Assembly (NCBI GenBank): GCA_963779985.1
Contig: CAVZZW010000004.1
Span: 1,527,624-1,591,623, forward strand
Origin: an uncultured Gammaproteobacteria bacterium
GTDB taxonomy: Bacteria; Pseudomonadota; Gammaproteobacteria; Steroidobacterales; Steroidobacteraceae
DNA length: 64,000 nucleotides
Direction of reading: 5' to 3'
Notes under the pieces: generated by a model
Databases searched by the model: none
What the model was told of the DNA's origin: nothing
The model's input: only the letters and a program-made list of their open reading frames with translations
Shown here: positions 32,078-64,000 of the stretch, in pieces
How the letters are laid out: the number at the start of each line of letters is the position of its first letter
Position numbering within the stretch: position 1 is the first letter of the stretch
Position numbers and translations under genes: made by a program

Positions 32078-33120
32078 ATACGCTAACGCTGCGGCGGCCC
32101 GATGACTGGCATGTGCATCTGCGCGACGGCGCTGCGCTCGCCGCGGTCGTTAAATTTACCGCGCAGCGGTTCGGACGCGCCATCGTGATGCCCAATCTGA
32201 AACCGGCGGTAGCCACCGCGGCAGCGGCGCGTGCGTATCGGGAGCGAATACTGGCGGCGCTCCCCGCCGATTCGAGCTTCGAGCCGCTGCTCACGCTGTA
32301 TCTGACGAATGGCACCACGCCGGATGAGATCGACCGCGCGCGGGCTTGCGGGTTCATTCACGGCATCAAGCTATATCCCGCCGGCGCGACGACGCACTCC
32401 GATGCCGGTGTGAGCGACATCGCCCAGGTATACGCGGCCCTCGCGCGCATGGAAGAGATCGGCATGCCCTTGCTGGTGCATGGCGAAACACCTCACCCCG
32501 ATGTGGACGTGTTCGACCGTGAAGCCCACTTCATCGACGCAGTGCTGCAACCGCTGGTCGAACGCTTCCGCGGATTGCGCGTGGTTTTGGAGCACATCAC
32601 GACGGCGCGCGCGGTTCAATTCGTCACCGATGCCCGAGCCGGCGTCGCCGCGACGATCACCCCGCAGCACCTGCTGCACAACCGCAACGCGATTTTTTCC
32701 GGCGGCATCCGGCCGCACTACTACTGCCTGCCGATTTTGAAGCGCGAGCGCGACCGGCAAGCACTCCTCGCGGCCGCCACCGGCGGCAATCCGCGTTTTT
32801 TTCTCGGTACCGACAGCGCGCCGCATGAGCGGGCGAGCAAGGAAAATGCCTGCGGCTGCGCCGGCATGTTCACGGCTCACGCCGCCATCGAGCTGTACGC
32901 CGAGGCCTTCGAGTCGGCCGGCCGGCTCGACCGCTTGGAAGCGTTCGCCAGTCATTTCGGCGCCGACTTCTACGGACTGCCGCGCCACGACGATACTATT
33001 ACTTTGGTCAAGGAGTCCTGGGTGCCCCCTCAAGTCTATGATTTCGGCGACGGCGCGCTGGTGCCCTATCGCGGCGGCGAACCGATCGCATGGCGTCTCG
33101 CCGGAGCCTGCCCCGCATGA
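32074..33120 (+). CDS. pyrC: Dihydroorotase (homodimeric type)
   Basis: RPDDWHVHLRDG, VMPNLKP, KLYPAGATT, FFLGTDSAPH. Confidence 0.9.
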   Translation: MNTLTLRRPDDWHVHLRDGAALAAVVKFTAQRFGRAIVMPNLKPAVATAAAARAYRERILAALPADSSFEPLLTLYLTNGTTPDEIDRARACGFIHGIKLYPAGATTHSDAGVSDIAQVYAALARMEEIGMPLLVHGETPHPDVDVFDREAHFIDAVLQPLVERFRGLRVVLEHITTARAVQFVTDARAGVAATITPQHLLHNRNAIFSGGIRPHYYCLPILKRERDRQALLAAATGGNPRFFLGTDSAPHERASKENACGCAGMFTAHAAIELYAEAFESAGRLDRLEAFASHFGADFYGLPRHDDTITLVKESWVPPQVYDFGDGALVPYRGGEPIAWRLAGACPA

Positions 33121-33822
33121 CCCAGCTCGCTCCGATCACTTTTGCAACGCGCTTTCGCGGCTTCCTGCCGGTGGTGATCGACGTCGAAACCGGAGGCTTC
33201 AATTCGCAAACCGATGCGCTGCTGGAGATCGCCGCGGTATTCATCGAAATGCGCAGCGATGGAACTTTGGCGCGCGGTCAAACGATTCGATACCACGTCG
33301 TGCCCTTTCCCGGCGCCAATATGGAAGCCGCGTCGCTGGCGGTGAACGGCATCGACCCCCATCATCCGCTGCGGCCCGCCATTCCCGAAGAGGACGCGCT
33401 GCAACGCATATTCCGTGAAGTCCGCAACTGCCATACGCGTCGCGGACTGCACGCGCGCGGTGCTGGTGGGACACAACGCGTTCTTCGATTTGAATTTCTT
33501 GAATGCGGCCGTGGCGCGCACGCAGGTCAAGCGCAACCCATTTCATCCCTTCTCGAGCTTCGATACGGCCACCCTGGGCGGCGTCGCCTTTGGCCAGACC
33601 GTATTGATGCGCGCGACCCTCGCTGCAGGCCTCGAGTGGGACACGGCGTCCGCGCACTCTGCGGCCTATGACGCCGAACGCACGGCCGATCTGTTCTGCA
33701 CGGTGTGCAACCAGTTTCAGGGTGTGTTCGACGCCAGCCGCCGGCGCTTGGCCGCGATGGGACCGCTGGAGGTCGAACCCTCGGCCTCGGGCGACCCGCA
33801 AATCCTCGAAGGCAGCAGTTAA
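33117..33822 (+). CDS. rnt: Ribonuclease T; frameshift near 33430
   Basis: [29 protein letters not shown] (DEDD exo I) is in ORF 33090..33671. [31 protein letters not shown] is in ORF 33415..33822. Confidence 0.82.
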
Positions 33823-36181: not shown

Positions 36182-38866
36182 TCAAACGCTGTTGGCCGCC
36201 TTCAGCACCCGCTGCGGCTGCGACACGCCATAGCCCTGCGCGTAGTCGACGCCCAGGCTTTGCAGCATATTGATGATCTCTTGATTCTCCGCGAACTCGG
36301 CAATGGTCTGCTTGCCGGTCAGATGCCCGATTTCATTGATCGAACGCACCATCTCGCGGTCGATGGGATCGTGCAGGATCTCCTTGACGAAGCTGCCGTC
36401 GATCTTCAAGTAATCGACCGGGAAGTGCTTCAGATATCCGAACGATGACAGGCCGGTGCCGAAATCGTCGAGCGCAAACTTACACCCCAATTCCTTCAGC
36501 GCCTGAATGAAGCGATTCGCCTGCGAGAAGCTCGCGATCGCCGCCGTCTCGGTGATTTCGAAGCAGATCTTGGTGGCATCCAGGCCGCTGCGGTGAAATT
36601 GATCGATCACGTAGGGCAGGAATTTATCGTCGCCCAGGCTCTGCCCCGAAAGATTGATCGAGCACATGGTCAATTTCTCGCGCTCGTCGGCTTCCGATAC
36701 CAGCCAACGGAACGCGTTTTCAATGACCCAACGATCGATGCTCGGCGTGATCCCGTAGCGCTCCGCCGCGGTCATGAAGTTGTCCGGCGCGACGATCTTG
36801 CCGGCCTCGTCGCGCATGCGTAGCAGCAGCTCGTAGTGCGCGCCCGATTCGGGCGTCTGCAACGGCAGAATGGTCTGCCTGAACAGCTCGAACCGCCCCT
36901 CCTCCAGGGCATTGTTGATGCGCGCCGCCCATTGCATCTCACGGCGCCGGCGCATCAGATCGATGTCGTTTTCTTCGAAGCTGTGGACCCGGTTGCGGCC
37001 CGCCTCCTTGGCCGCCTGGCAAGCGCTGTCCGCGGCGCTCAGCACCGACGCCACGTCGGCATTGTCCGCGGAAAGCGGCACTACGCCGATGCTCGCGCCC
37101 AGACGGAAGGTGCGCTCCTCCCAGGTGAACTTGAAGTTGCGCACCGCCTCGCGCAGCGTTTCCGCCGTCCGCATGGCCTCATCCAGAGAGCAGCTCTCCA
37201 GAAGAATGCCGAACTCATCGCCTCCCAGCCGCGCCAGCGTATCGCGCCAGCGGACTTTGGATTTGAGCAGGCCTCCGACCTGGCCCAGCAACGCGTCGCC
37301 GGCGCTGTGGCCGCAGGTGTCGTTGACGATCTTGAACTGGTCCAAATCGAGGACGCACAGCGCGTACGAGGTCTCGCGCGCCTTCGCGCTCTTCAAGGCC
37401 CGCTCCATGCGGTTTTCGAATTCGCGCCGGTTGACCAGCCCCGTGAGGACGTCGTGGCTGGCGTGATAGCTCAGGCGCCGGTTCAGCTCGCGTGCCTCGC
37501 TGACGTCGTGGAACACGAGCACTCCGCCGGACACCGCGCCGCTGCCGTCGCGTATCGGAGATGCCGTGCTCTCGACATAGATCTCGTTGCCGTCACGCCG
37601 GATCAGCAACATCGGCCGCACCGATTTGATCGACCGCGTGCGCCTGATCGCAACGGCCAGCGGATTCTCCAGAGGCTCGCAGGTTTCCTCGTGAAAGGCG
37701 CGGAAAATCTCTTCGATGGCGCGGCCCTGGCTATCCTCGAGGCGCCACCCCGTGAGCGCCTCCGCAACCGGATTCACATAGTCGATCACGCCCTTGGCAT
37801 CGGTGGTGATGACACCGTCGCCGATGCTCTGGAGAGTGATTTGCGCACTCTCCTTCTCGCGGAACAGCGCTTCCTCGTACAGTTTGCGCTCGGTGATGTC
37901 GAGTTCGACGCCGACCAGGCGCAGCAAGCGGCCCTTGTCGTCGACTTTCGCCTTCGCGCGGCTGATCACCCAACGCCACTCGCCGGTCGCATGGCGCATG
38001 CGATGCAGACTCTCGAAAATCGGCGTCTTGCCCGCCACGTGATCCCGAATGGCGGCTTGTACGCGCGACATATCGTCCGCGTGCACGAGGGTGCGCCAGT
38101 CCGGCTCCTGCCCCACGTCGGCTTCGTCATACCCCAGCATCGCTTTCCAGCGCGGCGAGAGATAGACGCGATTGTTGACGGTGTCGAAATCCCAAAGCCC
38201 GTCGTTCGCGCTGTACAACGCCAGCTCGTTGCGCTCTTCCAAATCGCGCAGGTGGTGCTGGATCTGGATGCGCTCCAATCCGGTGGACAGGCTGCTGCCC
38301 ACGAGCTTCATCAGCAGATGCAACTGAACTTCCCAGTTCTCGCGCGGCAGCGCGCCGGCTACACCTAAGAGGCCTGCCGCCCGGCCATCGATGAAGTAGC
38401 CGATGATCAGCACCGAGCCGATGCCGAGATGAATCCACACGGCGGCATCGTCGCTCTGATCGCCGCGGGGCTTGGCCGTATCGCGCAACTCCGATACGCG
38501 CAGCGGCGCCAGCCGCGATTGCAGCCACGGCAGGGTTTCCAAGGACTGACCGCGCAACTGCTCCGGATTGCCGGTCGCGAGCATGCCGCGCGCAACTTGA
38601 ATCTCATTGAACAGTCCCGACTCGGCGTCGAGATGGATATGGAAGGCGGCATCCGTGTGCGTCGACTCGCGCAGCAGTTCCAAGTTGGCGCCGATGACCT
38701 CGAACGCCGTCGCCGCGGTCATGGACTGGAAATCGACCGCGATCTTGGTGCAGATCACATCGAGACCCACGGCCGGACGCATACCGCGCCTCGGCCAGGC
38801 CTGCGGCGACAATATGTCCGACGCGGTCAGGTCTGGGTGGCGGGGATCGTGGGGGGCTATTGCCAT
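36182..38866 (-). CDS. Multidomain c-di-GMP protein: N-terminal sensor (GAF-like), 2 PAS, GGDEF, EAL
   Basis: The PAS regions include ANDGLWDFD. RLGGDEFGILL is the GGDEF motif. YELLLRM, DDFGTGLSS and FEITETAAI are the EAL-domain motifs. 894 aa, intact. Confidence 0.9.
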   Translation of the reverse strand: MAIAPHDPRHPDLTASDILSPQAWPRRGMRPAVGLDVICTKIAVDFQSMTAATAFEVIGANLELLRESTHTDAAFHIHLDAESGLFNEIQVARGMLATGNPEQLRGQSLETLPWLQSRLAPLRVSELRDTAKPRGDQSDDAAVWIHLGIGSVLIIGYFIDGRAAGLLGVAGALPRENWEVQLHLLMKLVGSSLSTGLERIQIQHHLRDLEERNELALYSANDGLWDFDTVNNRVYLSPRWKAMLGYDEADVGQEPDWRTLVHADDMSRVQAAIRDHVAGKTPIFESLHRMRHATGEWRWVISRAKAKVDDKGRLLRLVGVELDITERKLYEEALFREKESAQITLQSIGDGVITTDAKGVIDYVNPVAEALTGWRLEDSQGRAIEEIFRAFHEETCEPLENPLAVAIRRTRSIKSVRPMLLIRRDGNEIYVESTASPIRDGSGAVSGGVLVFHDVSEARELNRRLSYHASHDVLTGLVNRREFENRMERALKSAKARETSYALCVLDLDQFKIVNDTCGHSAGDALLGQVGGLLKSKVRWRDTLARLGGDEFGILLESCSLDEAMRTAETLREAVRNFKFTWEERTFRLGASIGVVPLSADNADVASVLSAADSACQAAKEAGRNRVHSFEENDIDLMRRRREMQWAARINNALEEGRFELFRQTILPLQTPESGAHYELLLRMRDEAGKIVAPDNFMTAAERYGITPSIDRWVIENAFRWLVSEADEREKLTMCSINLSGQSLGDDKFLPYVIDQFHRSGLDATKICFEITETAAIASFSQANRFIQALKELGCKFALDDFGTGLSSFGYLKHFPVDYLKIDGSFVKEILHDPIDREMVRSINEIGHLTGKQTIAEFAENQEIINMLQSLGVDYAQGYGVSQPQRVLKAANSV

Positions 38867-39054
38867 GCGCCTGCGGTGGTCCCAGGAGAATTGTTGCGGT
38901 GAGAGATCAACAGTTTGCCACCGGATTCAAGGCAAAAACCGAATGCGGCACACAGTTCCGTTGATCTCGCTCGTTGCACGTACAGCTGGATTCTCGCACA
39001 AGTTGTAAGGAATACAAGCTAAGCGATTGTATTGTTAGGGCTTGATGACATCCC

Positions 39055-39805
39055 TTAACCGAGCGCGCGCTCGGCCCCCTCGAACAGCGCCTGCAGACGG
39101 CTTTCCATATCGGCCTGCACGCGGCTGAGGCCGGCGGCATCCAACCCCTTGGGAACATACACCGGTTCACCGACCGCGATCACGATCCTCGACAGCGGGC
39201 AGGGAATCACGAATCGATCCCATTTGATCTTCCAGGCGCGCGAGGCGGCGTAGCTCAAGGGGATCATGGGCCGCCCCGACAGTTGCGCCAGCAGCACGGC
39301 CCCGGGTTTGAACTTCCAGGGCGGGCCCCGCGGCCCATCCGGTGTGATCGCCGGCGACACCCCCTCGTGAGCCAGCGCCTGATAATAATCGCGCAGTGCC
39401 CGGGCGCCGGTGTGCGAGGACGAGCCGCGAATCACCTCGCCGCCCAAGTTCCGCACGATCATCGCGCCGATCTCGCCGTCCACCGACGGCGAGATCAAGA
39501 AGCCCAATTTCAATCCGCGGCGGCGCTCACCCAGCAGGTGCTTGACGCAGAAATACCTGGTGTTGATGCCAGTAGACCGGTATGAAAGAAGGCGCGCGCC
39601 CGAGCGCCGACGCGATGTGTTCGGCGCCGATGACGCGAACGACTCGGGACCAGCGCCACACCAAGCGCACCAGCGACAAACCCACCGGCACGAGAATCTT
39701 GTACAAAAACAAGCGCCCGCGAGTCAGCCGCCTGCCGGAGCGGGTCTGCTGTTCGTAAATCGTATTGCGAAGGCCGCCACCGGGTTTCTCTTCCACGGCC
39801 GGCAT
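39055..39805 (-). CDS. DUF374-type lysophospholipid acyltransferase-like protein; frameshift near 39520
   Basis: The N-terminal part is in ORF 39527..39859 (..FIPVYWHQHQVF). The C-terminal part is in ORF 39055..39513 (LISPSVDGEIGAMIVRNLGGEVIRGSSSHTGARAL..AITPDGPRGP). Confidence 0.65.
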
Positions 39806-39890
39806 TGTCGAGAACGCCGTCGTACTGCGCAAGCCGGAGGCGCCCCGCTCGGCCCGCACCGGGTGCGCGTGCCCCCTCCTACGTTACAAT

Positions 39891-41195
39891 ATGATGATGC
39901 AAACCCCAGCACTGCCCCCGGGCCCCGCCGAAGGCTTCGATCTCGGCGGCAGCGACGAGTCGTTGGCTCGCTTGAACCGCTATTTCGCGCAGTTCGGCGA
40001 CATCTATCGCGTGTTCGCACCCGGCCGAGGCGTCTACAACTACGTCATCAACCATCCCGACGACATCAAGCGGGTCTTGCTCTCGAACCATCGCAACTAC
40101 ACCAAGGGTGAAGGGATGGATCGCGTCAAGATCCTGCTCGGCAACGGCATCATGACCAGCGAGGGCGATTTCTGGCGCCGGCAGCGGCGCATGATGCAGC
40201 CCTCGTTCCATCGCCGCGTCATCGATCAGTTCAGCACCCTGATACGCAATGTCAACGACAAGTTCGCCGACCGCTGGGCGGAAAAGGCGGCGCGCGCCGA
40301 GCCGATCAACTTGAGCGACGATGCCAGCGAGCTCACCCTGGAGATCGTGCTGCACTCGATATTCGGCAGCGACCTGGCACGCCTGGAAACGGAATTCGGC
40401 GCGAATCCGTTCGAAGTCGTTGCCAAGGAGCAGAACCGCGACCTGAAATTCGCATTCCGATTCCGTTCACTGACCAAGCTGGTCGCCGAGTTGATCAACC
40501 ACCGCCGGCGTACGCCTGAGGAGCATTTCGATTTCCTCGGCATGTTGATGGCAAGCCGCGATCGGGAGACCGATGAAGCGATGAGCGACAAAGAGTTGAT
40601 CGACGAGGTATTGACGCTGATCGTCGCCGGGCACGAGACCACCGCGGCGGCGCTCACCTGGACCTGGTATCTCATCAGCCGGCATCCGGACGCCCAGGGG
40701 CGTCTGCAGGCCGAAGCCGATCGCACCAGTCCCGATCAGACACTTGGGTTGGATGCCGCGGAATCGCTCGAGTTCACTCACCAGGTGCTGCAGGAGTCGC
40801 TGCGGCTCTATCCGCCGGGCTGGCTCATCACGCGGCGCACGCTCGAGGCGGACGAACTCGGCGGCTACCCCATTCCCCCGCGCACCGATGTGTTCATCAG
40901 CCCCTACATGCTGCATCGGCATCCGGCCTTCTGGAGCGAACCGGAGGAATTCAGGCCCGAGCGCTTCGCCGGACCCGACGCCGAAGAACGGCATCGATTT
41001 GCCTATATACCCTTCGCGGTGGGGCCGCGGCACTGCATCGGCGAGAACATCGCGATGTTCGAAATGCTGGTGCACGTGCATGCCATGGCGCGCCGCTTTC
41101 GCCTCACGCGCGCCGGCAACGAACCCATTGAACTCGAGGCGCAAATCAATTTGCGCCCTCGATCCAACCTCATGATGACAGTGGAAGCACGATGA
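39891..41195 (+). CDS. Cytochrome P450
   Basis: I-helix LIVAGHETTAAAL, ESLRLYPP (ExxR), heme loop FAVGPRHCIGEN. ATG triplet run at 39891. Confidence 0.9.
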   Translation: MMMQTPALPPGPAEGFDLGGSDESLARLNRYFAQFGDIYRVFAPGRGVYNYVINHPDDIKRVLLSNHRNYTKGEGMDRVKILLGNGIMTSEGDFWRRQRRMMQPSFHRRVIDQFSTLIRNVNDKFADRWAEKAARAEPINLSDDASELTLEIVLHSIFGSDLARLETEFGANPFEVVAKEQNRDLKFAFRFRSLTKLVAELINHRRRTPEEHFDFLGMLMASRDRETDEAMSDKELIDEVLTLIVAGHETTAAALTWTWYLISRHPDAQGRLQAEADRTSPDQTLGLDAAESLEFTHQVLQESLRLYPPGWLITRRTLEADELGGYPIPPRTDVFISPYMLHRHPAFWSEPEEFRPERFAGPDAEERHRFAYIPFAVGPRHCIGENIAMFEMLVHVHAMARRFRLTRAGNEPIELEAQINLRPRSNLMMTVEAR

Positions 41196-43198
41196 ACGAT
41201 GCCGCTAAGCTGATGAATTACACCACCCTGGTCGACGTCCTCGAAGCCAACCGCGGCATCGACCGCGCCGTCACCTACGTCGACGGAGAGAATTCCGAGC
41301 GGCGCGTGCCCTACGGCGAGGTCTATACGCGGGCGCTCGGCATCCTGTACCACCTGCAGGCCATGGGCGCGCAGCGCGGTGACAAGATGATCATTTTCCT
41401 GAGCAGCAACGAGCAATTCCTCGACGGCTTCTGGGCCGCGGTGTGCGGCGGCATCGTCCCGGTGCCGCTGGCCGTCGGCATCAGCGACGAGCATCGGCAC
41501 AAGCTGCTGCGGGTCGCGCGCAAGCTCGGCAAGCCTCTTCTCTACACGGACGCCAAGAATCTGGAGCGCTTGGAAGGCCTTGCCGCCCAGGTAGGCGAGA
41601 CCGCTCTGTTCGACGAGCTCAAATCACGCGCATTCCTGGTCGACTCCATCACCGACATCTCCCGGCCGGGCAAGCTGCATCGGCCGGCGCCCGACGACCT
41701 GGCCTTCATTCAATTCTCCTCCGGCTCGACCAGCGAGCCGAAGGGAGTGATGCTCACCCACGGCAATCTGATCGCCAACACCCAAGGCGCGACGGCCGTG
41801 GGCAAGTACAACGACCAGGATGTCACGTTGAGTTGGATGCCCCTGACGCACGACATGGGATTGATCGGATTTTATTTGATTCAATTCGCGAATCGCGTGC
41901 ACATCCATCTGATGCCCACCGAGCTGTTCGTGCGGCGGCCTCTGCTATGGATGCAAATCGCATCCAAGAAGCGGGCCACCCTCACCTGCTCGCCGAACTT
42001 CGGGTATCGGCATTTCCTGAAGGTGCTGGGAGACCGCCGGCTCGAGGGAGTCGACTTGTCGTCGATCCGGCAGATCTACAACGGAGCCGAACCGATCTCC
42101 GTGGCACTGTGCAATGAGTTCATGAGCGCCCTGGCGTACACCGGCCTCCAGCACCACGCCATGTACCCGGTCTACGGACTGGCGGAAGCCTCGCTGGCCG
42201 TGGCGTTTCCGACACCCGGCGTGGACTATCGCTGGATCCGCGTGAATCGGCACAAGCTTGGCGTTGGGGCCCAAGTCGAGCTCAACCCCACCGACGCCCG
42301 CGACGCGCTGGAACTCGTGTGTGTCGGGCGCACGGTGCCCAATACTGAGTTGCGCATCGCGGATCAAGCGCGCAACGCTCTGTCCGAAGGGCAGGTGGGA
42401 CACATCTTGATCCGCGGCGCCAATGTGACCCGCGGTTATTTCGGCGACCCGGAGGCAACCGCGCTCGCCATCGGCGCCGACGGCTGGGTCGACACGGGCG
42501 ATCTGGGTTTCATGCACGAGGGCTCGCTGTACATCGCCGGCCGGAGCAAGGAAATCATTTTCGTCAACGGCCAGAATTACTACCCCTACGATCTGGAGAA
42601 TATCGCGCAGCGGGCGCCGGGCTTGGATCTCAACAAACTGGTGGCCGCGGGTGTCGCCAAACCCGGCGCGCAAGGCGAAGAACTGGTGATATTCGTGCTG
42701 CATCGAGGCAGCATGGCGGAATTTCTGCCGACCGCGGCGGCGGTCCAACGCTTGGTCAACGAGCACACGGGCCTCGAAGTCGCGCAAGTCATCCCCGCCA
42801 AGCGCATTCCCAAAACCACCAGCGGCAAGGTCCAACGTCACCTGCTGGAACAGGCGTATATCGACGGCGAATTCGACGCCGAACTCGCGGAACTCAAAGC
42901 GCTGCGCGCGGCGCCGGGAGCGGCGGCACAAGTTTCCGGAAGTGAGCTGGAAATCCGCCTGCAGTCGATTTGCGAAACGGCGCTGCCGGGAAAGAGAATC
43001 GACGTGCACGACAATCTATTCGACATCGGCGCAAGCTCGCTCAAGCTGATCGAGATTCACGAGAACGTCGACCGCGATTTCCCCGGTCTCATCGATCTGA
43101 CCGAGCTGTTCGATCATCCGACCATCGCCGACCTTGCGAAACACTTGGAATCCAAGCTCAAGGCTGCGCCCACGGCCGCAAGCAGCGCTCCTGCCTGA
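41192..43198 (+). CDS. Fatty acyl-AMP ligase-like adenylating enzyme fused to a C-terminal carrier (ACP/PCP) domain
   Basis: FIQFSSGSTSEPKGVMLTHGNL, YGLAEA, TGDLGF, PKTTSGKVQR. The C-terminal carrier motif is NLFDIGASSLKLIE. The start overlaps the P450 stop (ATGA). Confidence 0.85.
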   Translation: MNDAAKLMNYTTLVDVLEANRGIDRAVTYVDGENSERRVPYGEVYTRALGILYHLQAMGAQRGDKMIIFLSSNEQFLDGFWAAVCGGIVPVPLAVGISDEHRHKLLRVARKLGKPLLYTDAKNLERLEGLAAQVGETALFDELKSRAFLVDSITDISRPGKLHRPAPDDLAFIQFSSGSTSEPKGVMLTHGNLIANTQGATAVGKYNDQDVTLSWMPLTHDMGLIGFYLIQFANRVHIHLMPTELFVRRPLLWMQIASKKRATLTCSPNFGYRHFLKVLGDRRLEGVDLSSIRQIYNGAEPISVALCNEFMSALAYTGLQHHAMYPVYGLAEASLAVAFPTPGVDYRWIRVNRHKLGVGAQVELNPTDARDALELVCVGRTVPNTELRIADQARNALSEGQVGHILIRGANVTRGYFGDPEATALAIGADGWVDTGDLGFMHEGSLYIAGRSKEIIFVNGQNYYPYDLENIAQRAPGLDLNKLVAAGVAKPGAQGEELVIFVLHRGSMAEFLPTAAAVQRLVNEHTGLEVAQVIPAKRIPKTTSGKVQRHLLEQAYIDGEFDAELAELKALRAAPGAAAQVSGSELEIRLQSICETALPGKRIDVHDNLFDIGASSLKLIEIHENVDRDFPGLIDLTELFDHPTIADLAKHLESKLKAAPTAASSAPA

Positions 43199-43275
43199 GG
43201 CGGCGCGCCGAAACCGGACCTGATCGATGCTACGACAGAGGCGTGCTCAACGGCGACAGGCCGGTCGATGGGCGG

Positions 43276-44127
43276 TCAATCGGCGCCGTATAGGGGCTTT
43301 TTCAAGCGCCAGCGGCGATAGGACCAGAGCCAGTCGGCGGGACTCTCGAGCACGTCGGCTTCGCAGGCGCGCGCATAGCGCTCGGTCATTGCATTCGGTT
43401 CTGCCGCCTCGCGTCCATCCCACAGCGGGCGCAGCTCGACTTCGTAGTAGCCGCGGCGCATTCGGCGCACCCGCGCGTATAGGATGGGCAGGCGCGTCGC
43501 GCGCGCGATCTGCTCGGCGCCGATGTAGAACGCCGTGTCCTGCCCCAAGAATCGCGTCCAGTAGCGCTTGTCCGTCGAGACCGGAGCTTGGTCGGCGTTC
43601 ATCGCCACCGCCCGCACGATGCCCCGCCGCCGCAGAAAGTCCGCCAACAATTCCTTGGCGGGCACCAGCCGAGCCCCGAACCGGGACCGGATGCGCAGCA
43701 TCAACCGCTCCGCCCATTGATCGTGCAAGGGCTTGTAGGCGGCATCGACTGGATAGCCCAATTGCAGCGCCACGCCGTGCAGCAGCCACTCCCAATTACA
43801 CAGGTGCGAGGTCACCAGCATGACGGATTGGCCGGCATCCAAATGCCGCCGCGCGGCCTCCAGATTCACGATCCGCACGCGGGCGCGCATGTCCGCTTCG
43901 GTCATCGACACCGACTTCAGCACCTCGACCACGACATCGCAGAAGTTCCCGAGGAATCGCTTATGGACACGCTCACGTTCGGCGTCGCTCCACTCCGGAA
44001 AGACTTTTTCGAGCTGTTCGCGAATCACCCCATGCCGATGCCGCACCACATAGAATGCCAGTAGGTACAGAAAGGAAGAAAATACGTAAAGTGCCCGCAG
44101 GGGCACGCGGGAGAACAATTTGATCAT
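43276..44127 (-). CDS. LpxL/HtrB-family (lipid A secondary / lysophospholipid) acyltransferase
   Basis: N-terminal TM segment, the HX4E-type box TSHLCNWEW, and a C-terminal WLWSYRRWR typical of the family. Confidence 0.72.
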   Translation of the reverse strand: MIKLFSRVPLRALYVFSSFLYLLAFYVVRHRHGVIREQLEKVFPEWSDAERERVHKRFLGNFCDVVVEVLKSVSMTEADMRARVRIVNLEAARRHLDAGQSVMLVTSHLCNWEWLLHGVALQLGYPVDAAYKPLHDQWAERLMLRIRSRFGARLVPAKELLADFLRRRGIVRAVAMNADQAPVSTDKRYWTRFLGQDTAFYIGAEQIARATRLPILYARVRRMRRGYYEVELRPLWDGREAAEPNAMTERYARACEADVLESPADWLWSYRRWRLKKPLYGAD

Positions 44128-44196
44128 GGGCGGTCCAGTTTACGGTATTCAGTCGTCGATATCCGGAATTTCCAGAATGTTACGTTCATATCCACC

Positions 44197-44748
44197 ATGA
44201 AGAAAATCACGCCCAGGGAATTCAGCGATGCCTTCGTGGCGGTCATGCAGGCCGAGCGCAACAGCTTGCGCACGGCGGCGAGCTTCGAAGCCAAATCCTA
44301 TACGTACTTCATGCGCACCAATATCTTCCCCAAGATCGCGCGGCATCTCGGTCTGCTGGCTTGGAACAAGGAGTACTACGCCCTCGATGGGATGTTTTAT
44401 GAAGAACGGGGCAGGGATAGTTTCGGCAAATACACGACGTATGCCAAATGGATATCGGTTGCCCTGGAACACGCATACAAACCGGCGAGAACGTACGAAG
44501 AGATCAATAAGCTGCAGATGTTCAACGCCCCGCTGAAAGTATTGATCACCTACGCGGCCGAAGGTGCCGAAGAAGATGCACTCTTGCGCAAGTATGAGTC
44601 GGTCATCAGTGAATCCGATGTGTTCAATGACGTCGCAACTCTTCGGCAACAACTCGTCATTCTCGCAACATCCAAGGCACTCCAGGAGTGGCGCTTCTAC
44701 ACTTACGAAAACGACGGCTTCGTGCTGATGCTACCGCGCACGGCCTGA
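44197..44748 (+). CDS. Hypothetical protein, no recognised domain
   Basis: 183-aa ORF with Lys/Glu/Tyr-rich, protein-like composition. The overlapping minus ORF 44149..44652 is Arg-rich and looks antisense. Confidence 0.5.
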   Translation: MKKITPREFSDAFVAVMQAERNSLRTAASFEAKSYTYFMRTNIFPKIARHLGLLAWNKEYYALDGMFYEERGRDSFGKYTTYAKWISVALEHAYKPARTYEEINKLQMFNAPLKVLITYAAEGAEEDALLRKYESVISESDVFNDVATLRQQLVILATSKALQEWRFYTYENDGFVLMLPRTA

Positions 44749-44925
44749 TATATATCTCGCCGGGCTTTCCGCACCGCCGCATCGAACAGCCGCCAAGCGA
44801 GAGCCCGCCAATTTGTTGCATGGCAAGGGGCATCCTTGCGGTTAAGATGCTCCGGTCGAGTCTAAGATCCGGGCTCGCTTCCGGCGCGCCCTTCATAAGA
44901 ATGCCAAATCACTCAAGGGGACGTT

Positions 44926-60132: not shown

Positions 60133-61440
60133 TTGCACGTGCGTGGAATCATAGGAGCCAGACTTTTAGCGAGCCCAGAAGCACAGCCGGGGCGGGGTCC
60201 CTTCGAGATCCGCGATACGCGATTGCCCGGCTTTCTTTTGCGGGTTCAGCCCAGTGGCGCGCGAGCCTATGTCGCTCAAACCGGCCGTGGGGAGCGGGTC
60301 ACATTCGCCAAAGTCGGGGTCCTGACTCCAGACGAAGCACGCGAACGCTGTCAGCTCATACTCGGAAACGTCGCCCACGGTCGCGAACCTCTTCACGGCA
60401 TTGACGGAACAGAAAGAATAACACTCGGGGCCTTTATAGAATCAACGTACAAGCCGTGGCTGTTAGCTAATCGGCCTCGAAGCGCCGTACAAAGCCTCCA
60501 GCGTTTAGAGACCCTTTTTGCAAAATGGAATGCGACCCCTCTCGAACATTTGACCGTTAAAAGTTTCGAAACGTGGAAGCTTGATCGCATCAACCAAGGT
60601 CGCAAGCCATCCACGATCGCACGCGACCTCGCGACAATCTCTGGCGTTTTGAGTCGAGCCGTGAAACTCGACAAACTAGCGTCAAACATCATTAGAAAAG
60701 TTGATGTGCCGAAGTTAGACCGTTCACCAAAGGTGCGATACCTCAGCATCGAGGAAGCGGGACGCCTGCGCACCGCGCTGAGAACCCGAGACCATAAAAT
60801 GCGTATGCAACGGGAGTCGGCAAATAAATGGCGAAGATCTAGACAAAAAAAACAATTGCCCAATTTCGAGGATTTCGCCGACCATCTCGAGCCAGCAATT
60901 ATTTTGAGCCTCAACACGGGCATCCGTCGGGGAGAACTTCTTGGACTCAAATGGAGTTCTATCGATATGACTAATAAAATCCTTACCATTGACGGCGTCG
61001 GATCGAAAACGATGCAAACACGCCATATACCACTCAACACTGAAGCAATGAATGTTCTAGAGCGCTGGAAGAAACAAACGACGGGCGAACGTCCTTTCCC
61101 ATTTACAGGCTTAAAGACAGCGTGGAACGCCTTGTTAGGGCAGGCAAAGATTGAAGCGTTTCGCTGGCACGACATGCGGCACGATTTCGCAAGTAGACTC
61201 GCCTCTAAGGGCGTGCCGCTCAATACAATACGCGAACTCCTTGGGCACCAGTCTTTAGCTATGACACTGCGCTACGCGCACCTGCAGCCAGATCAAAAGG
61301 CGGCGGCGGTGGCCACACTAGTTGACTTGAGTAGTCTAACGCAAGGAGCAGCCGCGAATGCGCCGGCTGCTCGCTCGTCATCAAGCCCTAAGGCGCGTTT
61401 GCGCGCTCCACACCCGCTAGGCGGCGCCGCGCGAGGCTGA
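60133..61440 (+). CDS. P4-type tyrosine integrase (DUF4102 N-terminal arm-binding domain)
   Basis: [23 protein letters not shown], then the catalytic region [42 protein letters not shown] (R..HxxR..Y). Confidence 0.88.
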
Positions 61441-61447
61441 CCTGTGG

Positions 61448-63295
61448 TCATGTCGCCTTGCGTAACAACAACACGCACGGATCGCTCTTTGGCGTCAAAA
61501 TTGTTGTCTGAACTTTCGCCCGAGTTACGCTTACGCGAAAATTCTGTCTTGCATGTGTCAGATCGCCATCCAAAATATTTCCGCGAACGATCCGGTCCGG
61601 ATTGGAAACAATCTTCCCTTTTTGGGTTCTTGGCCATCCCTCGAATATTATGACTTCATCGAACTGTTTCCCTTTGGCCTTGTGCATATTCATAACGATT
61701 ACACCTGACTCGGGCTTGTGTGCGACAGCAAAGTGATGCCGTGTGAATGCCTGCCGAACTATCTGTAATGCATTTTTGTAAGAACCGTTCTGCCGCCAAT
61801 CCAGAGCCAGCGATTCGCGAAGCTCGGTCCCTCGGTCCAATAGCCTAACATTTTTTGCCTCTTCCGCGACCTGGCCGAACCGTTTGCACCCGCATTCCGC
61901 CAGTGCGACACGGATCATGGTCCAATCATCGGCGGGATTTCCCGTCCGCTTTGTCGCCACGCATGTTTCATACCCCGTTGACAATGGAATAACGATGCTA
62001 TTTGCTGGAAGCGACTTCTTCTTCTCCTTACAAATTGTAGCCTTTTCGAAGGCCTTTAAGATGGCGATCGATTCTGAAATATCAGACGCTGAAGGCGCAT
62101 CCCCGCCCCTCCCACGGAAGTAATTGCAGAGAAGATCCAAACACGCCCTGAACTCGCCGTCGGCACCAGCACATTGCAACAAAAAGGCAATGACCTCTGC
62201 CGCGAGAATTGCTCCTTCCATGTCGATTGCCGCGTGGTGAGATATTGATGGCATGGAGGTATCCTTCTCGCGAAATGCGTCTGACACTTGCCGCATCATC
62301 TTTTTGGTCGGCACCAAAATCGCCAGTGTCCAGTTGTTATCCTTAGCCTCGATCAGCCTCTTTCTCGCCTGAAGTGTGTGCCCCTTTAGAGACGCTATCG
62401 CTTGATTACCATTTGCCTCAAAGGTGAAAAGGCGCATCCCTTGATACTTATTCTGAAACTGTCCGCTAAGAATATGATTCCCGAAGAGCGCTATGTCCGT
62501 ACCTGCACTTCGATGATTTTCATCGCCGAGATCAAATTCCTTAGGCTTAAACGTTTCTCTGAAATGGTTCAGACGCTCCGGATCAGCGCCGATGAAGTCA
62601 TATATTCTTTGCTCTGCGTCCGCCAACGCGATGAGCGTACTGGCTATCCCGAGTCTTTGAACTACGCGCCATTGCTCCGCGTTCGTGTCCTGAAATTCAT
62701 CAAGAACAATTACTGGATATACGGATGAGATCAACTCCCTGATCTTTCGGCTTCCGGTCAGTATTGTCGCAGTGAGATCAGCAAACAAATCGAAGCAGAC
62801 CTTGCCATCTTCGAATGCAAGGCGTCGGACTTCGTTGCTTTCTCGCTGTATCTTGTCTATCCCCCGAGCGGGCGTCAGCTTCTTAATTGGACCAAACTCG
62901 TGCCTGATTTGAGATAGGGCAACGGCCTGCGCGGAGGGCGTGAGAATCTCTAACTTGCGTGGCATTCCGAGCAGGTAGCCATGCGTCTTCAGAATTCTCC
63001 AAAAGAACGCATGGTATGTATCAACCTCCACGCGCCTGCGTACCTCGGCATTATTTCCGGTGTGTTCGTCCAATGCTTCCAATATGCGAGCCACGGTAGC
63101 CCGCGCAAAGCTGAGGAAGAGCACCCTTTGAGTGTGCCGCGGCAGCCTTGCAACTAAGAGGTCCGCCTTTATGATGGACACAGTGGTCTTGCCAGAGCCG
63201 GGGCCGCCATGGACAAGCAGATGGCCCGCTTGAGCAATTATTCCCTTCTTCTTTTCCGATAGCTCAAACAAGGTCCACCGCATCCTCATCGACAC
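61448..63295 (-). CDS. UvrD/Rep-family SF1 helicase (GajB-like)
   Basis: VHGGPGSGKTTV (Walker A), VLDEFQDTN (motif II), MNMHKAKGKQFD, RVSVTRAK (motif VI). Confidence 0.85.
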   Translation of the reverse strand: MSMRMRWTLFELSEKKKGIIAQAGHLLVHGGPGSGKTTVSIIKADLLVARLPRHTQRVLFLSFARATVARILEALDEHTGNNAEVRRRVEVDTYHAFFWRILKTHGYLLGMPRKLEILTPSAQAVALSQIRHEFGPIKKLTPARGIDKIQRESNEVRRLAFEDGKVCFDLFADLTATILTGSRKIRELISSVYPVIVLDEFQDTNAEQWRVVQRLGIASTLIALADAEQRIYDFIGADPERLNHFRETFKPKEFDLGDENHRSAGTDIALFGNHILSGQFQNKYQGMRLFTFEANGNQAIASLKGHTLQARKRLIEAKDNNWTLAILVPTKKMMRQVSDAFREKDTSMPSISHHAAIDMEGAILAAEVIAFLLQCAGADGEFRACLDLLCNYFRGRGGDAPSASDISESIAILKAFEKATICKEKKKSLPANSIVIPLSTGYETCVATKRTGNPADDWTMIRVALAECGCKRFGQVAEEAKNVRLLDRGTELRESLALDWRQNGSYKNALQIVRQAFTRHHFAVAHKPESGVIVMNMHKAKGKQFDEVIIFEGWPRTQKGKIVSNPDRIVRGNILDGDLTHARQNFRVSVTRAKVQTTILTPKSDPCVLLLRKAT

Positions 63296-64000
63296 CTGTT
63301 TCCTTTGGCTGCCCTTCCTCGTTTAGGCTATCTTCTTCTTTTTCTGATTCAATCTTCGCGGGTTGACAGAGGCCGCGTAGGCTTTGGCAAGTCTGTCGAA
63401 TCCACTCTGGAATTTCATCTTCAGAACACTGCGAGAGAAACTCCGCCATGCCCCAGTTCCCTTTCGACCAGTCAAAATAGTCAGCTAGAAACGCTGCTGC
63501 CGACGCCTTTGGGTCGGCGTACTTCGACTTCAGGTGAGGGGGGACCTGAAGCGCGTCAATGAAACGCTCCATTGCCACCTTGGGGGTGTTCTTGAGAACG
63601 AGTTTTTCAAGGTCCGATTCGTCATGCATAAATAGCTTGGCAACCTGGCCCTCTATAGCCTTTTGACTTTCTGGAGTCTGGCTGTCACACACCGCGAAAA
63701 CGGTTTTTCCCAAACTGCCGTAAAGCTTCGCGAGATCGGCGATCTGCGAGTCTGTCCCAGCGTCCACCGTACAGATGCCAAGCGCTTCGAATGACGAATA
63801 CATATCGGGTCGAAGTTCTTCCAGGCGTCGCGCGGCGGCTGGGATCGAGGTCGCTTCAGTTGCACCTTCTGCCAGAAGAAGCCGCCGCGATAGCAAGCCT
63901 TCGCAAAATCGGGTCCGGAATTCCTGCCTGTATCGTTTTTGCTTTACGCTCGCGGGCAGCTCCACGGTCGCCTGCGTCATTTCGCCTTCGGCAGATCGCG
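63264..64000 (-). CDS. C-terminal TOPRIM part of an OLD-family nuclease (GajA-like); N-terminal ATPase part lies outside the window
   Basis: LLLAEGATEATSIP..GICTVDAGTDSQI..VFAVCDSQ is TOPRIM-like. My check shows the frame is open from 63980 to base 64000 (..RSAEGEMTQ..), so the listed Met is internal. It overlaps the helicase start by 32 nt. Confidence 0.62.
   Translation of the reverse strand, partial: RSAEGEMTQATVELPASVKQKRYRQEFRTRFCEGLLSRRLLLAEGATEATSIPAAARRLEELRPDMYSSFEALGICTVDAGTDSQIADLAKLYGSLGKTVFAVCDSQTPESQKAIEGQVAKLFMHDESDLEKLVLKNTPKVAMERFIDALQVPPHLKSKYADPKASAAAFLADYFDWSKGNWGMAEFLSQCSEDEIPEWIRQTCQSLRGLCQPAKIESEKEEDSLNEEGQPKETGVDEDAVDLV

Follow-up and report, generated by a model that had tools for sequence, protein, structure and literature searches.

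We analysed a compact gene cassette in a 64,000-nt stretch of a Steroidobacteraceae chromosome (contig CAVZZW010000004.1; the whole stretch is hereafter called the window), and found that its central gene, which encodes a fatty acyl-AMP ligase (FAAL) fused to its own carrier domain, is kept together with genes for lipid-A-type late acyltransferases in dozens of species-level genomes. Conserved at the core are the FAAL-carrier gene and at least one acyltransferase gene, to which a cytochrome P450 gene is added as a frequent option, and the arrangement is far from chance. We consider it likely that the carrier feeds the acyltransferases of the cassette. The full model, in which a private FAAL-carrier acyl donor, oxidised by the P450, would feed LpxL- and LpxJ-type transferases that act on lipid A, is put forward more tentatively, as a reading that falls a little short of probable. 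The analysis was computational throughout, using sequence only, and all coordinates are positions of the window, in which the cassette has the following features:

39055-39805, minus strand: DUF374 (LpxJ-family) acyltransferase gene (Pfam PF04028), in two frames in this assembly
39550, minus strand: single-base insertion (a C on the minus strand) just past the catalytic YWHQH motif, which breaks the DUF374 frame
39806-39890, no strand: divergent intergenic region of 85 bp between the DUF374 and P450 genes
39891-41195, plus strand: cytochrome P450 of 434 residues (Pfam p450, E 3e-77)
41192-43198, plus strand: FAAL fused to a carrier domain, 668 residues (AMP-binding E 2e-53, PP-binding E 9e-11)
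42203-42316, plus strand: FAAL-specific insertion region, about residues 338-375 (gap-free alignment to 3pbk and 3kxw)
42980-43147, plus strand: carrier (PP-binding) domain, residues 597-652 (Pfam PP-binding; Ser616 codon at 43037-43039)
43276-44127, minus strand: LpxL/LpxM-family membrane acyltransferase of 283 residues (Lip_A_acyltrans, E 1e-32)

A preliminary description of this DNA had named the same four genes, and Pfam matches recovered all of them where it had placed them. The coordinates of the open reading frames (ORFs) agree with the ATGA overlap it had read between the two central genes (FAAL start at 41192, P450 end at 41195), the divergent gap of 85 bp is right provided that the DUF374 gene starts at the ATG at 39805, and the FDIGASSL motif was found in the fused carrier at residues 610-617. 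The LpxL-like gene is convergent, as described, with a gap of 77 bp to the FAAL-carrier gene. What had been overlooked is that the DUF374 gene, although present, is broken in frame.

The conservation of the cassette was examined by aligning the didomains from an exhaustive profile search with the window protein and using the alignment to fetch 80 species-representative loci (FAAL identity 45-89%; given below by L number), in which all ORFs were searched with the window proteins. Most of these loci come from metagenome-assembled genomes (MAGs) of Steroidobacteraceae, and the others from Woeseiaceae, Thiotrichales, Chromatiaceae, Thiohalomonadales and Thioalkalispiraceae, with Endozoicomonas sp. 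G2_2 (L074) and Panacagrimonas perspica DSM 26377 (L069) also included. In the 58 well-flanked loci, which have at least 3 kb upstream and at least 2.5 kb downstream, the acyltransferase genes adjoining the FAAL-carrier gene were as follows:

DUF374 and LpxL-like: 27 of 58 loci
DUF374 and two LpxL-like: 2 of 58 loci
DUF374 only: 19 of 58 loci
LpxL-like only: 5 of 58 loci
two DUF374: 1 of 58 loci
neither type: 4 of 58 loci

At least one of the two acyltransferase types was present beside the FAAL-carrier gene in 54 of the 58 loci, and the P450 gene was present in 46 (79%), always directly upstream and abutting or overlapping the FAAL start. The full set (DUF374, P450 and LpxL-like genes with the FAAL-carrier gene) was found in 26. 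The co-conservation on which the preliminary description had staked its proposal came out in its favour, though the set of four is not obligatory. The catalytic motifs of the three partner proteins are conserved across 43-60 orthologues.

The same loci bear on the possibility that the genes are unrelated neighbours, the acyltransferases being ordinary enzymes that use AcpP donors and the P450/FAAL-carrier pair having a role in some other pathway, e.g., one for a secondary metabolite or for a lipid of the sphingoid or alkylamine type. Within the Steroidobacteraceae gene order is in general strongly kept, an upstream PAS-GGDEF-EAL gene, nadC and other genes included. Outside this family, however, the remaining neighbours in different loci bear no relation to each other, and inherited synteny therefore cannot explain the association between the acyltransferase and FAAL-carrier genes, which is found in Woeseiaceae, Thiotrichales, Chromatiaceae, Thiohalomonadales and Endozoicomonas at 45-50% FAAL identity. 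The association, operonic coupling included, also outlasts inversions and insertions: the DUF374 gene is inverted in L056 and L057, which have DUF374 and two LpxL-like genes, and Endozoicomonas has two DUF374 genes, both downstream of the FAAL gene. In some loci paralogues occur in tandem. A further point against unrelated neighbours is a 4'-phosphopantetheinyl transferase (PPTase) gene that overlaps or abuts the DUF374 gene in many loci. Besides the synteny within the Steroidobacteraceae, the evidence that speaks for them comes from Panacagrimonas (L069, 8661-17522) and a MAG (L075), in which the FAAL-carrier gene is followed by genes for a second AMP-binding enzyme and an alpha-oxoamine-synthase-like aminotransferase, with no acyltransferase; only L069 has a P450 gene before the FAAL-carrier gene, and a Zn-dehydrogenase gene is found there as well. 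This gene set could be a sphingoid or alkylamine lipid pathway, and a fusion of FAAL, acyl carrier protein (ACP) and alpha-oxoamine synthase exists among distant homologues. Taking both sides together, we regard unrelated neighbours as an improbable explanation.

From the alpha-oxoamine-synthase contexts it follows that the FAAL-carrier family has, at about 45-50% identity, been recruited to other lipid pathways, and the P450/FAAL-carrier pair behaves as a portable unit supplying a tailored acyl-carrier to different downstream enzymes. Since the pair stays coupled when the downstream enzyme is different, the substrate of the P450 would be the acyl chain and not the final lipid.

The FAAL-carrier protein has the adenylation motifs SSGSTxxPKG (176), YGxAE (328), TGD (435) and PKTxSGKxxR (540, with the catalytic Lys), many of which are invariant in an alignment (A2) of 23 stand-alone FAAL-carrier didomains with 41-87% identity. 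Its top NCBIfam model is PRK09192 (fatty acyl-AMP ligase), with 373 bits, under the 600-bit cut-off, and the closest solved structures to the ligase are the McyG A-PCP, the E. coli FAAL 3pbk and the Legionella FAAL 3kxw. Across the FAAL-specific insertion, residues 338-375 match 3pbk and 3kxw in a gap-free alignment, but the alignment to McyG has 21 residues of gaps; the exact boundaries of the insertion in 3pbk are presumably those that we used. The phosphopantetheine-attachment residue Ser616, within FDIGASSL, is invariant across the 23 stand-alone didomains. In 22 of the 80 loci (in the range L020-L078; examples are L042:7936-8634, L074:7951-8583 and L069:8016-8669) the DUF374 and P450/FAAL genes have the gene for an Sfp-type PPTase between them, and this position inside the cassette gives good support for the use of the carrier domain; the window itself has no Sfp-type PPTase gene.

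Judged by these alignments, the ligase is of the FAAL type and has the FAAL insertion, and would not be a coenzyme A (CoA) ligase with a dead tail. The insertion, which the preliminary description had left to be sought by alignment, is present, and the CoA ligase with a non-phosphopantetheinylated C-terminus that it had named as fatal to its proposal is made unlikely by the insertion, by the invariant serine and by the PPTase genes. Among the 50%-identity representatives, the proteins longer than the FAAL-carrier didomain are extended by an alpha-oxoamine synthase, ketosynthase or condensation domain, or have no further domain that could be recognised.

Both flanking genes fall in lipid A late-acyltransferase families, because DUF374 is the LpxJ family of such enzymes (PMC6148475). 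LpxJ is a non-orthologous replacement of LpxM and is responsible for the 3' secondary acyl chain of lipid A (PMC6148475), and this family membership strengthens the lipid A idea of the preliminary description. The DUF374 match (E 7e-20, 70.8 bits against a cut-off of 26.8) was obtained on the fragment 39055-39513. The WHQ and DGP motifs are invariant over 60 DUF374 orthologues and would be equivalent to H61 and D132 of Rickettsia LpxJ (PMC6148475). The LpxL-like protein matches Lip_A_acyltrans (PF03279) over profile positions 26-294 of 295 (269 covered), and a hydrophobic N-terminal anchor is visible in its sequence. Its HX4E motif, HLCNWE (residues 108-113; nt 43789-43806), lies opposite HFGTWE of the Acinetobacter LpxM 5kn7, and the H, DQxP and C-terminal W/RW residues are conserved in 43 LpxL-like orthologues, with the His invariant. 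Across the loci the LpxL-like and DUF374 genes stand in for one another or are duplicated, and this replacement, which mirrors that of LpxM by LpxJ (PMC6148475), favours lipid A as the acceptor. An ArnT-like (PMT_2) glycosyltransferase gene, found a few kb upstream in 5-6 loci (L029, L049, L056, L057, L078:3340-5145), favours the same acceptor.

The P450 has the heme-Cys motif FAVGPRHCIG (residues 375-384), the EXXR motif ESLR (302) and the I-helix motif AGHETT (246), all of which are conserved across 59 orthologues. Its closest solved structures are CYP97A3, CYP3A, CYP170A1 and CYP102, and a placement in this CYP97/CYP3/CYP102-like group does not fix its substrate. The idea of a terpenoid or hopanoid acid, made by the P450 and activated by the ligase as a hopanoid-lipid A would require, was dropped; a weak family resemblance of the P450 was all that spoke for it.

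The frame of the DUF374 gene deserves separate treatment. The N-terminal part (39527-39805) and the C-terminal part (39055-39513, both minus strand) lie in different frames because of the single extra base at 39550, where the minus strand reads GTATTT[C]TGCGTC in the window and GTTTTGCG in the relative L001 (DNA alignment), and tblastn of intact relatives switches frame at about 39550. In close relatives the gene is intact, with about 246 residues (246 in L001) and a gap of 87 bp to the P450 gene. A second frameshift, seen by reference to L005 and L006, lies at 33428 in a gene at about 33042-33819 (plus strand), 6 kb upstream of DUF374, where an extra C gives CGCAA[C]TGCC; a C before TGC is the signature common to both insertions. 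Since two frameshifts within about 14 kb have one signature, an assembly or base-calling error is favoured over a pseudogene, and the DUF374 frameshift is probably a systematic long-read error of this kind and not gene decay.

In one Steroidobacteraceae subclade the cassette is rearranged on one strand in the order P450, FAAL-carrier, Irr/PerR-like regulator, membrane fusion protein (MFP), HAE1-type resistance-nodulation-division (RND) transporter and LpxL-like gene, the last of which begins 3 bp past the RND gene. The three-gene insertion (regulator, MFP and HAE1-type RND) is found in subclade loci L019-L053, e.g., L050:1804-7959, and the Irr/PerR-like Fur-family regulator, which scores 136 bits against the IrrA cut-off of 150, adjoins the cassette in 25 of the 80 loci. 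The position of the MFP and RND genes between the FAAL-carrier and LpxL-like genes, with the regulator, in 12-13 loci would suit a product that is exported or secreted by the RND transporter, such as a surfactant, a signalling lipid or a non-lipopolysaccharide outer-membrane glycolipid, by analogy with the mycobacterial FadD/Pks-Pap-MmpL systems. However, the RND pair occurs in this subclade only, the window and most loci lacking it, and no thioesterase, glycosyltransferase, polyketide synthase (PKS) or nonribosomal peptide synthetase (NRPS) gene is consistently present across the loci. An exported lipid is in our view very unlikely.

Two further kinds of neighbour were observed in the fetched loci. 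A ZitB-like cation diffusion facilitator (CDF) transporter gene lies beside DUF374 in 8 loci, and a canonical FabH gene (448 bits against a cut-off of 249) lies at or just past the FAAL-carrier stop in the Woeseiaceae loci L079 (4078-5043) and L082 (11952-12917).

To our knowledge, the only activity known for the LpxL- and LpxJ-type families is O-acyl transfer from carrier-bound donors. In the full model, the FAAL domain would adenylate a free fatty acid and tether it by a thioester bond to the carrier fused to it, in place of CoA or the housekeeping ACP. The translationally coupled P450 would oxidise the chain either just ahead of its activation or on the carrier, with hydroxylation as the most likely reaction. 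With the private carrier as donor, the membrane-anchored LpxL-type and LpxJ-type transferases would then attach the acyl group to lipid A as an ester, most likely at secondary (acyloxyacyl) positions, to give an unusual oxidised secondary chain. Loading by the FAAL and transfer by the LpxL/LpxJ-like enzymes are suggested by family chemistry and gene linkage; the action of the P450 on the acyl chain and the use of lipid A as the acceptor are steps that we infer. The intact catalytic motifs and the family assignments of all four proteins support the full model. A more specific version, in which a perhaps scavenged fatty acid would be loaded in cis on the carrier, hydroxylated by the P450 while tethered and moved by the LpxL/LpxJ transferases to one or two secondary positions of lipid A, with Irr/PerR-like metal or redox control in part of the family, is possible though rather doubtful.

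Several observations weigh against the full model. It is family membership alone that names lipid A as the most likely acceptor, and the LpxL-like protein scores 44-90 bits against NCBIfam equivalog cut-offs of 248-540 for LpxL, LpxM and LpxP (PRK08419, 90 against 248; TIGR02207, 71 against 298; TIGR02208, 56 against 336 bits). These scores are far under all the equivalog cut-offs and thus make the protein a divergent family member, and the family also includes enzymes that do not act on lipid A, e.g., PatA. The nearest characterised relatives of the P450 act on carotenoid and terpenoid as well as fatty-acid substrates. A Rosetta-stone search of 50%-identity representatives gave no fusion of a FAAL-carrier with an acyltransferase. 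The strict four-gene set occurs in under half of the loci, the P450 being absent from 12 of the 58 and both acyltransferases from 4, and in a few relatives the partner of the P450/FAAL-carrier pair is an alpha-oxoamine synthase. Finally, the DUF374 gene is frameshifted in the copy of this assembly.

Some of these points would fit a different membrane-lipid acceptor. It could be a glycolipid or an aminolipid, or else a lysophospholipid, in which case the cassette would be a split counterpart of Aas or AasC/LpaT that brings its own carrier. The FAAL is a moderate match to the Aas model PRK08633, an acyl-[ACP]--phospholipid O-acyltransferase (E 7e-34), and the LpxL-like protein, besides falling under the lipid A cut-offs, matches "lysophospholipid acyltransferase family" models and, weakly, PatA, which is, like AlmG, a member of the LpxL family with a non-canonical substrate. 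In contrast, the characterised Gram-negative members of PF03279 and PF04028 all act on lipid A, the cassette has no PlsC-type (PF01553) enzyme, and the interchange of DUF374 and LpxL-like genes parallels that of LpxJ and LpxM. We hold such an acceptor to be unlikely, though a real contender. The logic of the preliminary description, in which a fatty acid is oxidised by the P450, activated on a dedicated carrier and transferred by an LpxL-type enzyme, came through favourably in each of its listed refutation tests that can be run in silico, but the four-gene set is not obligatory and lipid A is the acceptor that sequence families suggest.

Lipid A acylation sets outer-membrane permeability, stress tolerance and innate-immune recognition. 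The known late acylations draw on the housekeeping ACP, with two private-carrier exceptions, AcpXL and AlmF. If the full model is true, the cassette would be a third carrier-dependent route, by which free fatty acids and the chemistry of a P450 would enter lipid A or another envelope lipid. In the more specific version above, this would be the first acylation of lipid A to depend on a P450 and the first to depend on a FAAL. The full model would also give a role to a gene set conserved in very abundant uncultured Gammaproteobacteria of soil (Steroidobacteraceae) and marine sediment (Woeseiaceae and relatives).

The cassette lies within a 63% G+C chromosome segment whose housekeeping genes include those for the pyruvate dehydrogenase complex, methionyl-tRNA synthetase and nadC. 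Near-identical proteins have database names that point to Steroidobacteraceae (Gammaproteobacteria), and the FAAL-carrier protein has a 100%-identical database entry. In a consensus scan of 38800-44900 no sigma-70-like promoter was recognised, and terminator-like sites were rarer than in shuffled sequence. The sole inverted repeat of the 85-bp divergent region is a weak 17-nt palindrome, and no regulator-binding site was found there; the 77-bp convergent gap folds no better than its shuffles (z = -0.15). Immediately adjoining DUF374 is the gene for the PAS-GGDEF-EAL protein (36182-38866, minus strand; 894 residues), which is 90-96% identical in close relatives and so more conserved than the cassette. 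It was rejected as part of the system because its linkage to the cassette is limited to the Steroidobacteraceae, like that of nadC and other housekeeping neighbours. Directly past the LpxL-like gene, in a patch of lower G+C (57%), is an ORF of 183 residues (44197-44748, plus strand) with no Pfam or NCBIfam match; it is not conserved, and relatives carry PGDYG-domain and other genes at this place. No tRNA gene was found in 44-64 kb of the window. The end of the window (60133-63980) has a low G+C content (about 52%) and is a probable integrated island with a Gabija-like pair, in which we found:

60133-61440, plus strand: phage-type integrase
61448-63295, minus strand: UvrD-like helicase
63264-63980, minus strand: OLD-like TOPRIM protein

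The preliminary description had not recognised the arrangement as a characterised pathway, and indeed no description of it was found in the searchable literature, nor any paper that connects late acyltransferases with a FAAL or a P450. For FAAL-ACP didomains, the contexts named in a 2025 review are those of PKS, NRPS and olefin pathways only (PMC11837247). Among known systems, the closest in logic is AlmEFG of Vibrio cholerae, which the preliminary description did not name. In this operon an adenylating enzyme loads a phosphopantetheinylated carrier for the modification of lipid A with glycine (PMC4278540), and AlmG, a distant relative of LpxL/LpxM, passes the glycine to lipid A (Henderson 2017, as cited in PMC11631085). 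As in the cassette, an adenylating enzyme, a carrier and an LpxL-family transferase are encoded together. However, AlmE is a DltA-like amino-acid ligase with glycine as its cargo and AlmF is a separate small carrier, whereas the cassette has a FAAL-type adenylation domain, a fused carrier, a coupled P450 and usually a second transferase, of the LpxJ family.

The parallel that had been drawn with the rhizobial AcpXL/LpxXL route holds for the combination of a private carrier with an LpxL-family enzyme, and the difference that had been named, the lack of a dedicated fatty acid synthase set in the cassette, holds as well, but AlmEFG is the closer precedent. In the rhizobial route, a private carrier delivers a hydroxylated chain to an LpxL-family enzyme that places it at a secondary position of lipid A, the chain being built de novo by fabZXL, fabF1XL and fabF2XL on the free-standing AcpXL (PMC5613085). 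In the cassette, by contrast, the chain would come from an adenylated free acid and any hydroxyl from the P450. Genes of the fabZXL, fabF1XL and fabF2XL type are absent from the window cassette and none is conserved in the 80 loci, the only adjacent gene of the fab elongation type being the canonical fabH of two Woeseiaceae loci.

As noted, the flanking genes belong to the LpxJ and LpxM/LpxL families and appear to keep their catalytic motifs (WH...D and HX4E). The characterised LpxJ and LpxM/LpxL enzymes differ from them in using housekeeping acyl-ACP donors, usually with no linked adenylating enzyme, and the LpxL-like protein of the cassette differs from LpxL and LpxM in failing all the NCBIfam equivalog cut-offs. 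In mycobacterial FadD-Pks/Pap/MmpL modules, an envelope lipid is finished by an acyltransferase together with a transporter of the RND family. Thiotemplated cassettes that combine a FAAL, an ACP and desaturases or, in some clusters, a P450, e.g., bacterial polyyne clusters, carry out tailoring on a carrier-loaded fatty acid (PMC11837247). In the polyyne and mycobacterial systems release is by a thioesterase or a PKS/Pap enzyme, whereas in the cassette, which is that of a Gram-negative bacterium, late acyltransferases of the lipid A type would do this.

Finally, E. coli Aas, Vibrio AasS and Chlamydia AasC-LpaT pass a free fatty acid via ACP to a membrane acyltransferase (PMC12086093). They resemble the cassette in that an adenylate-forming enzyme charges an ACP and a membrane acyltransferase uses the product, and differ from it in their housekeeping ACP, in PlsC-type acyltransferases that act on lysophospholipids and in having no P450. 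Overall, the predicted chemistry of the cassette is an extension of the known carrier-dependent late acylation of an envelope lipid, and not a break with it.

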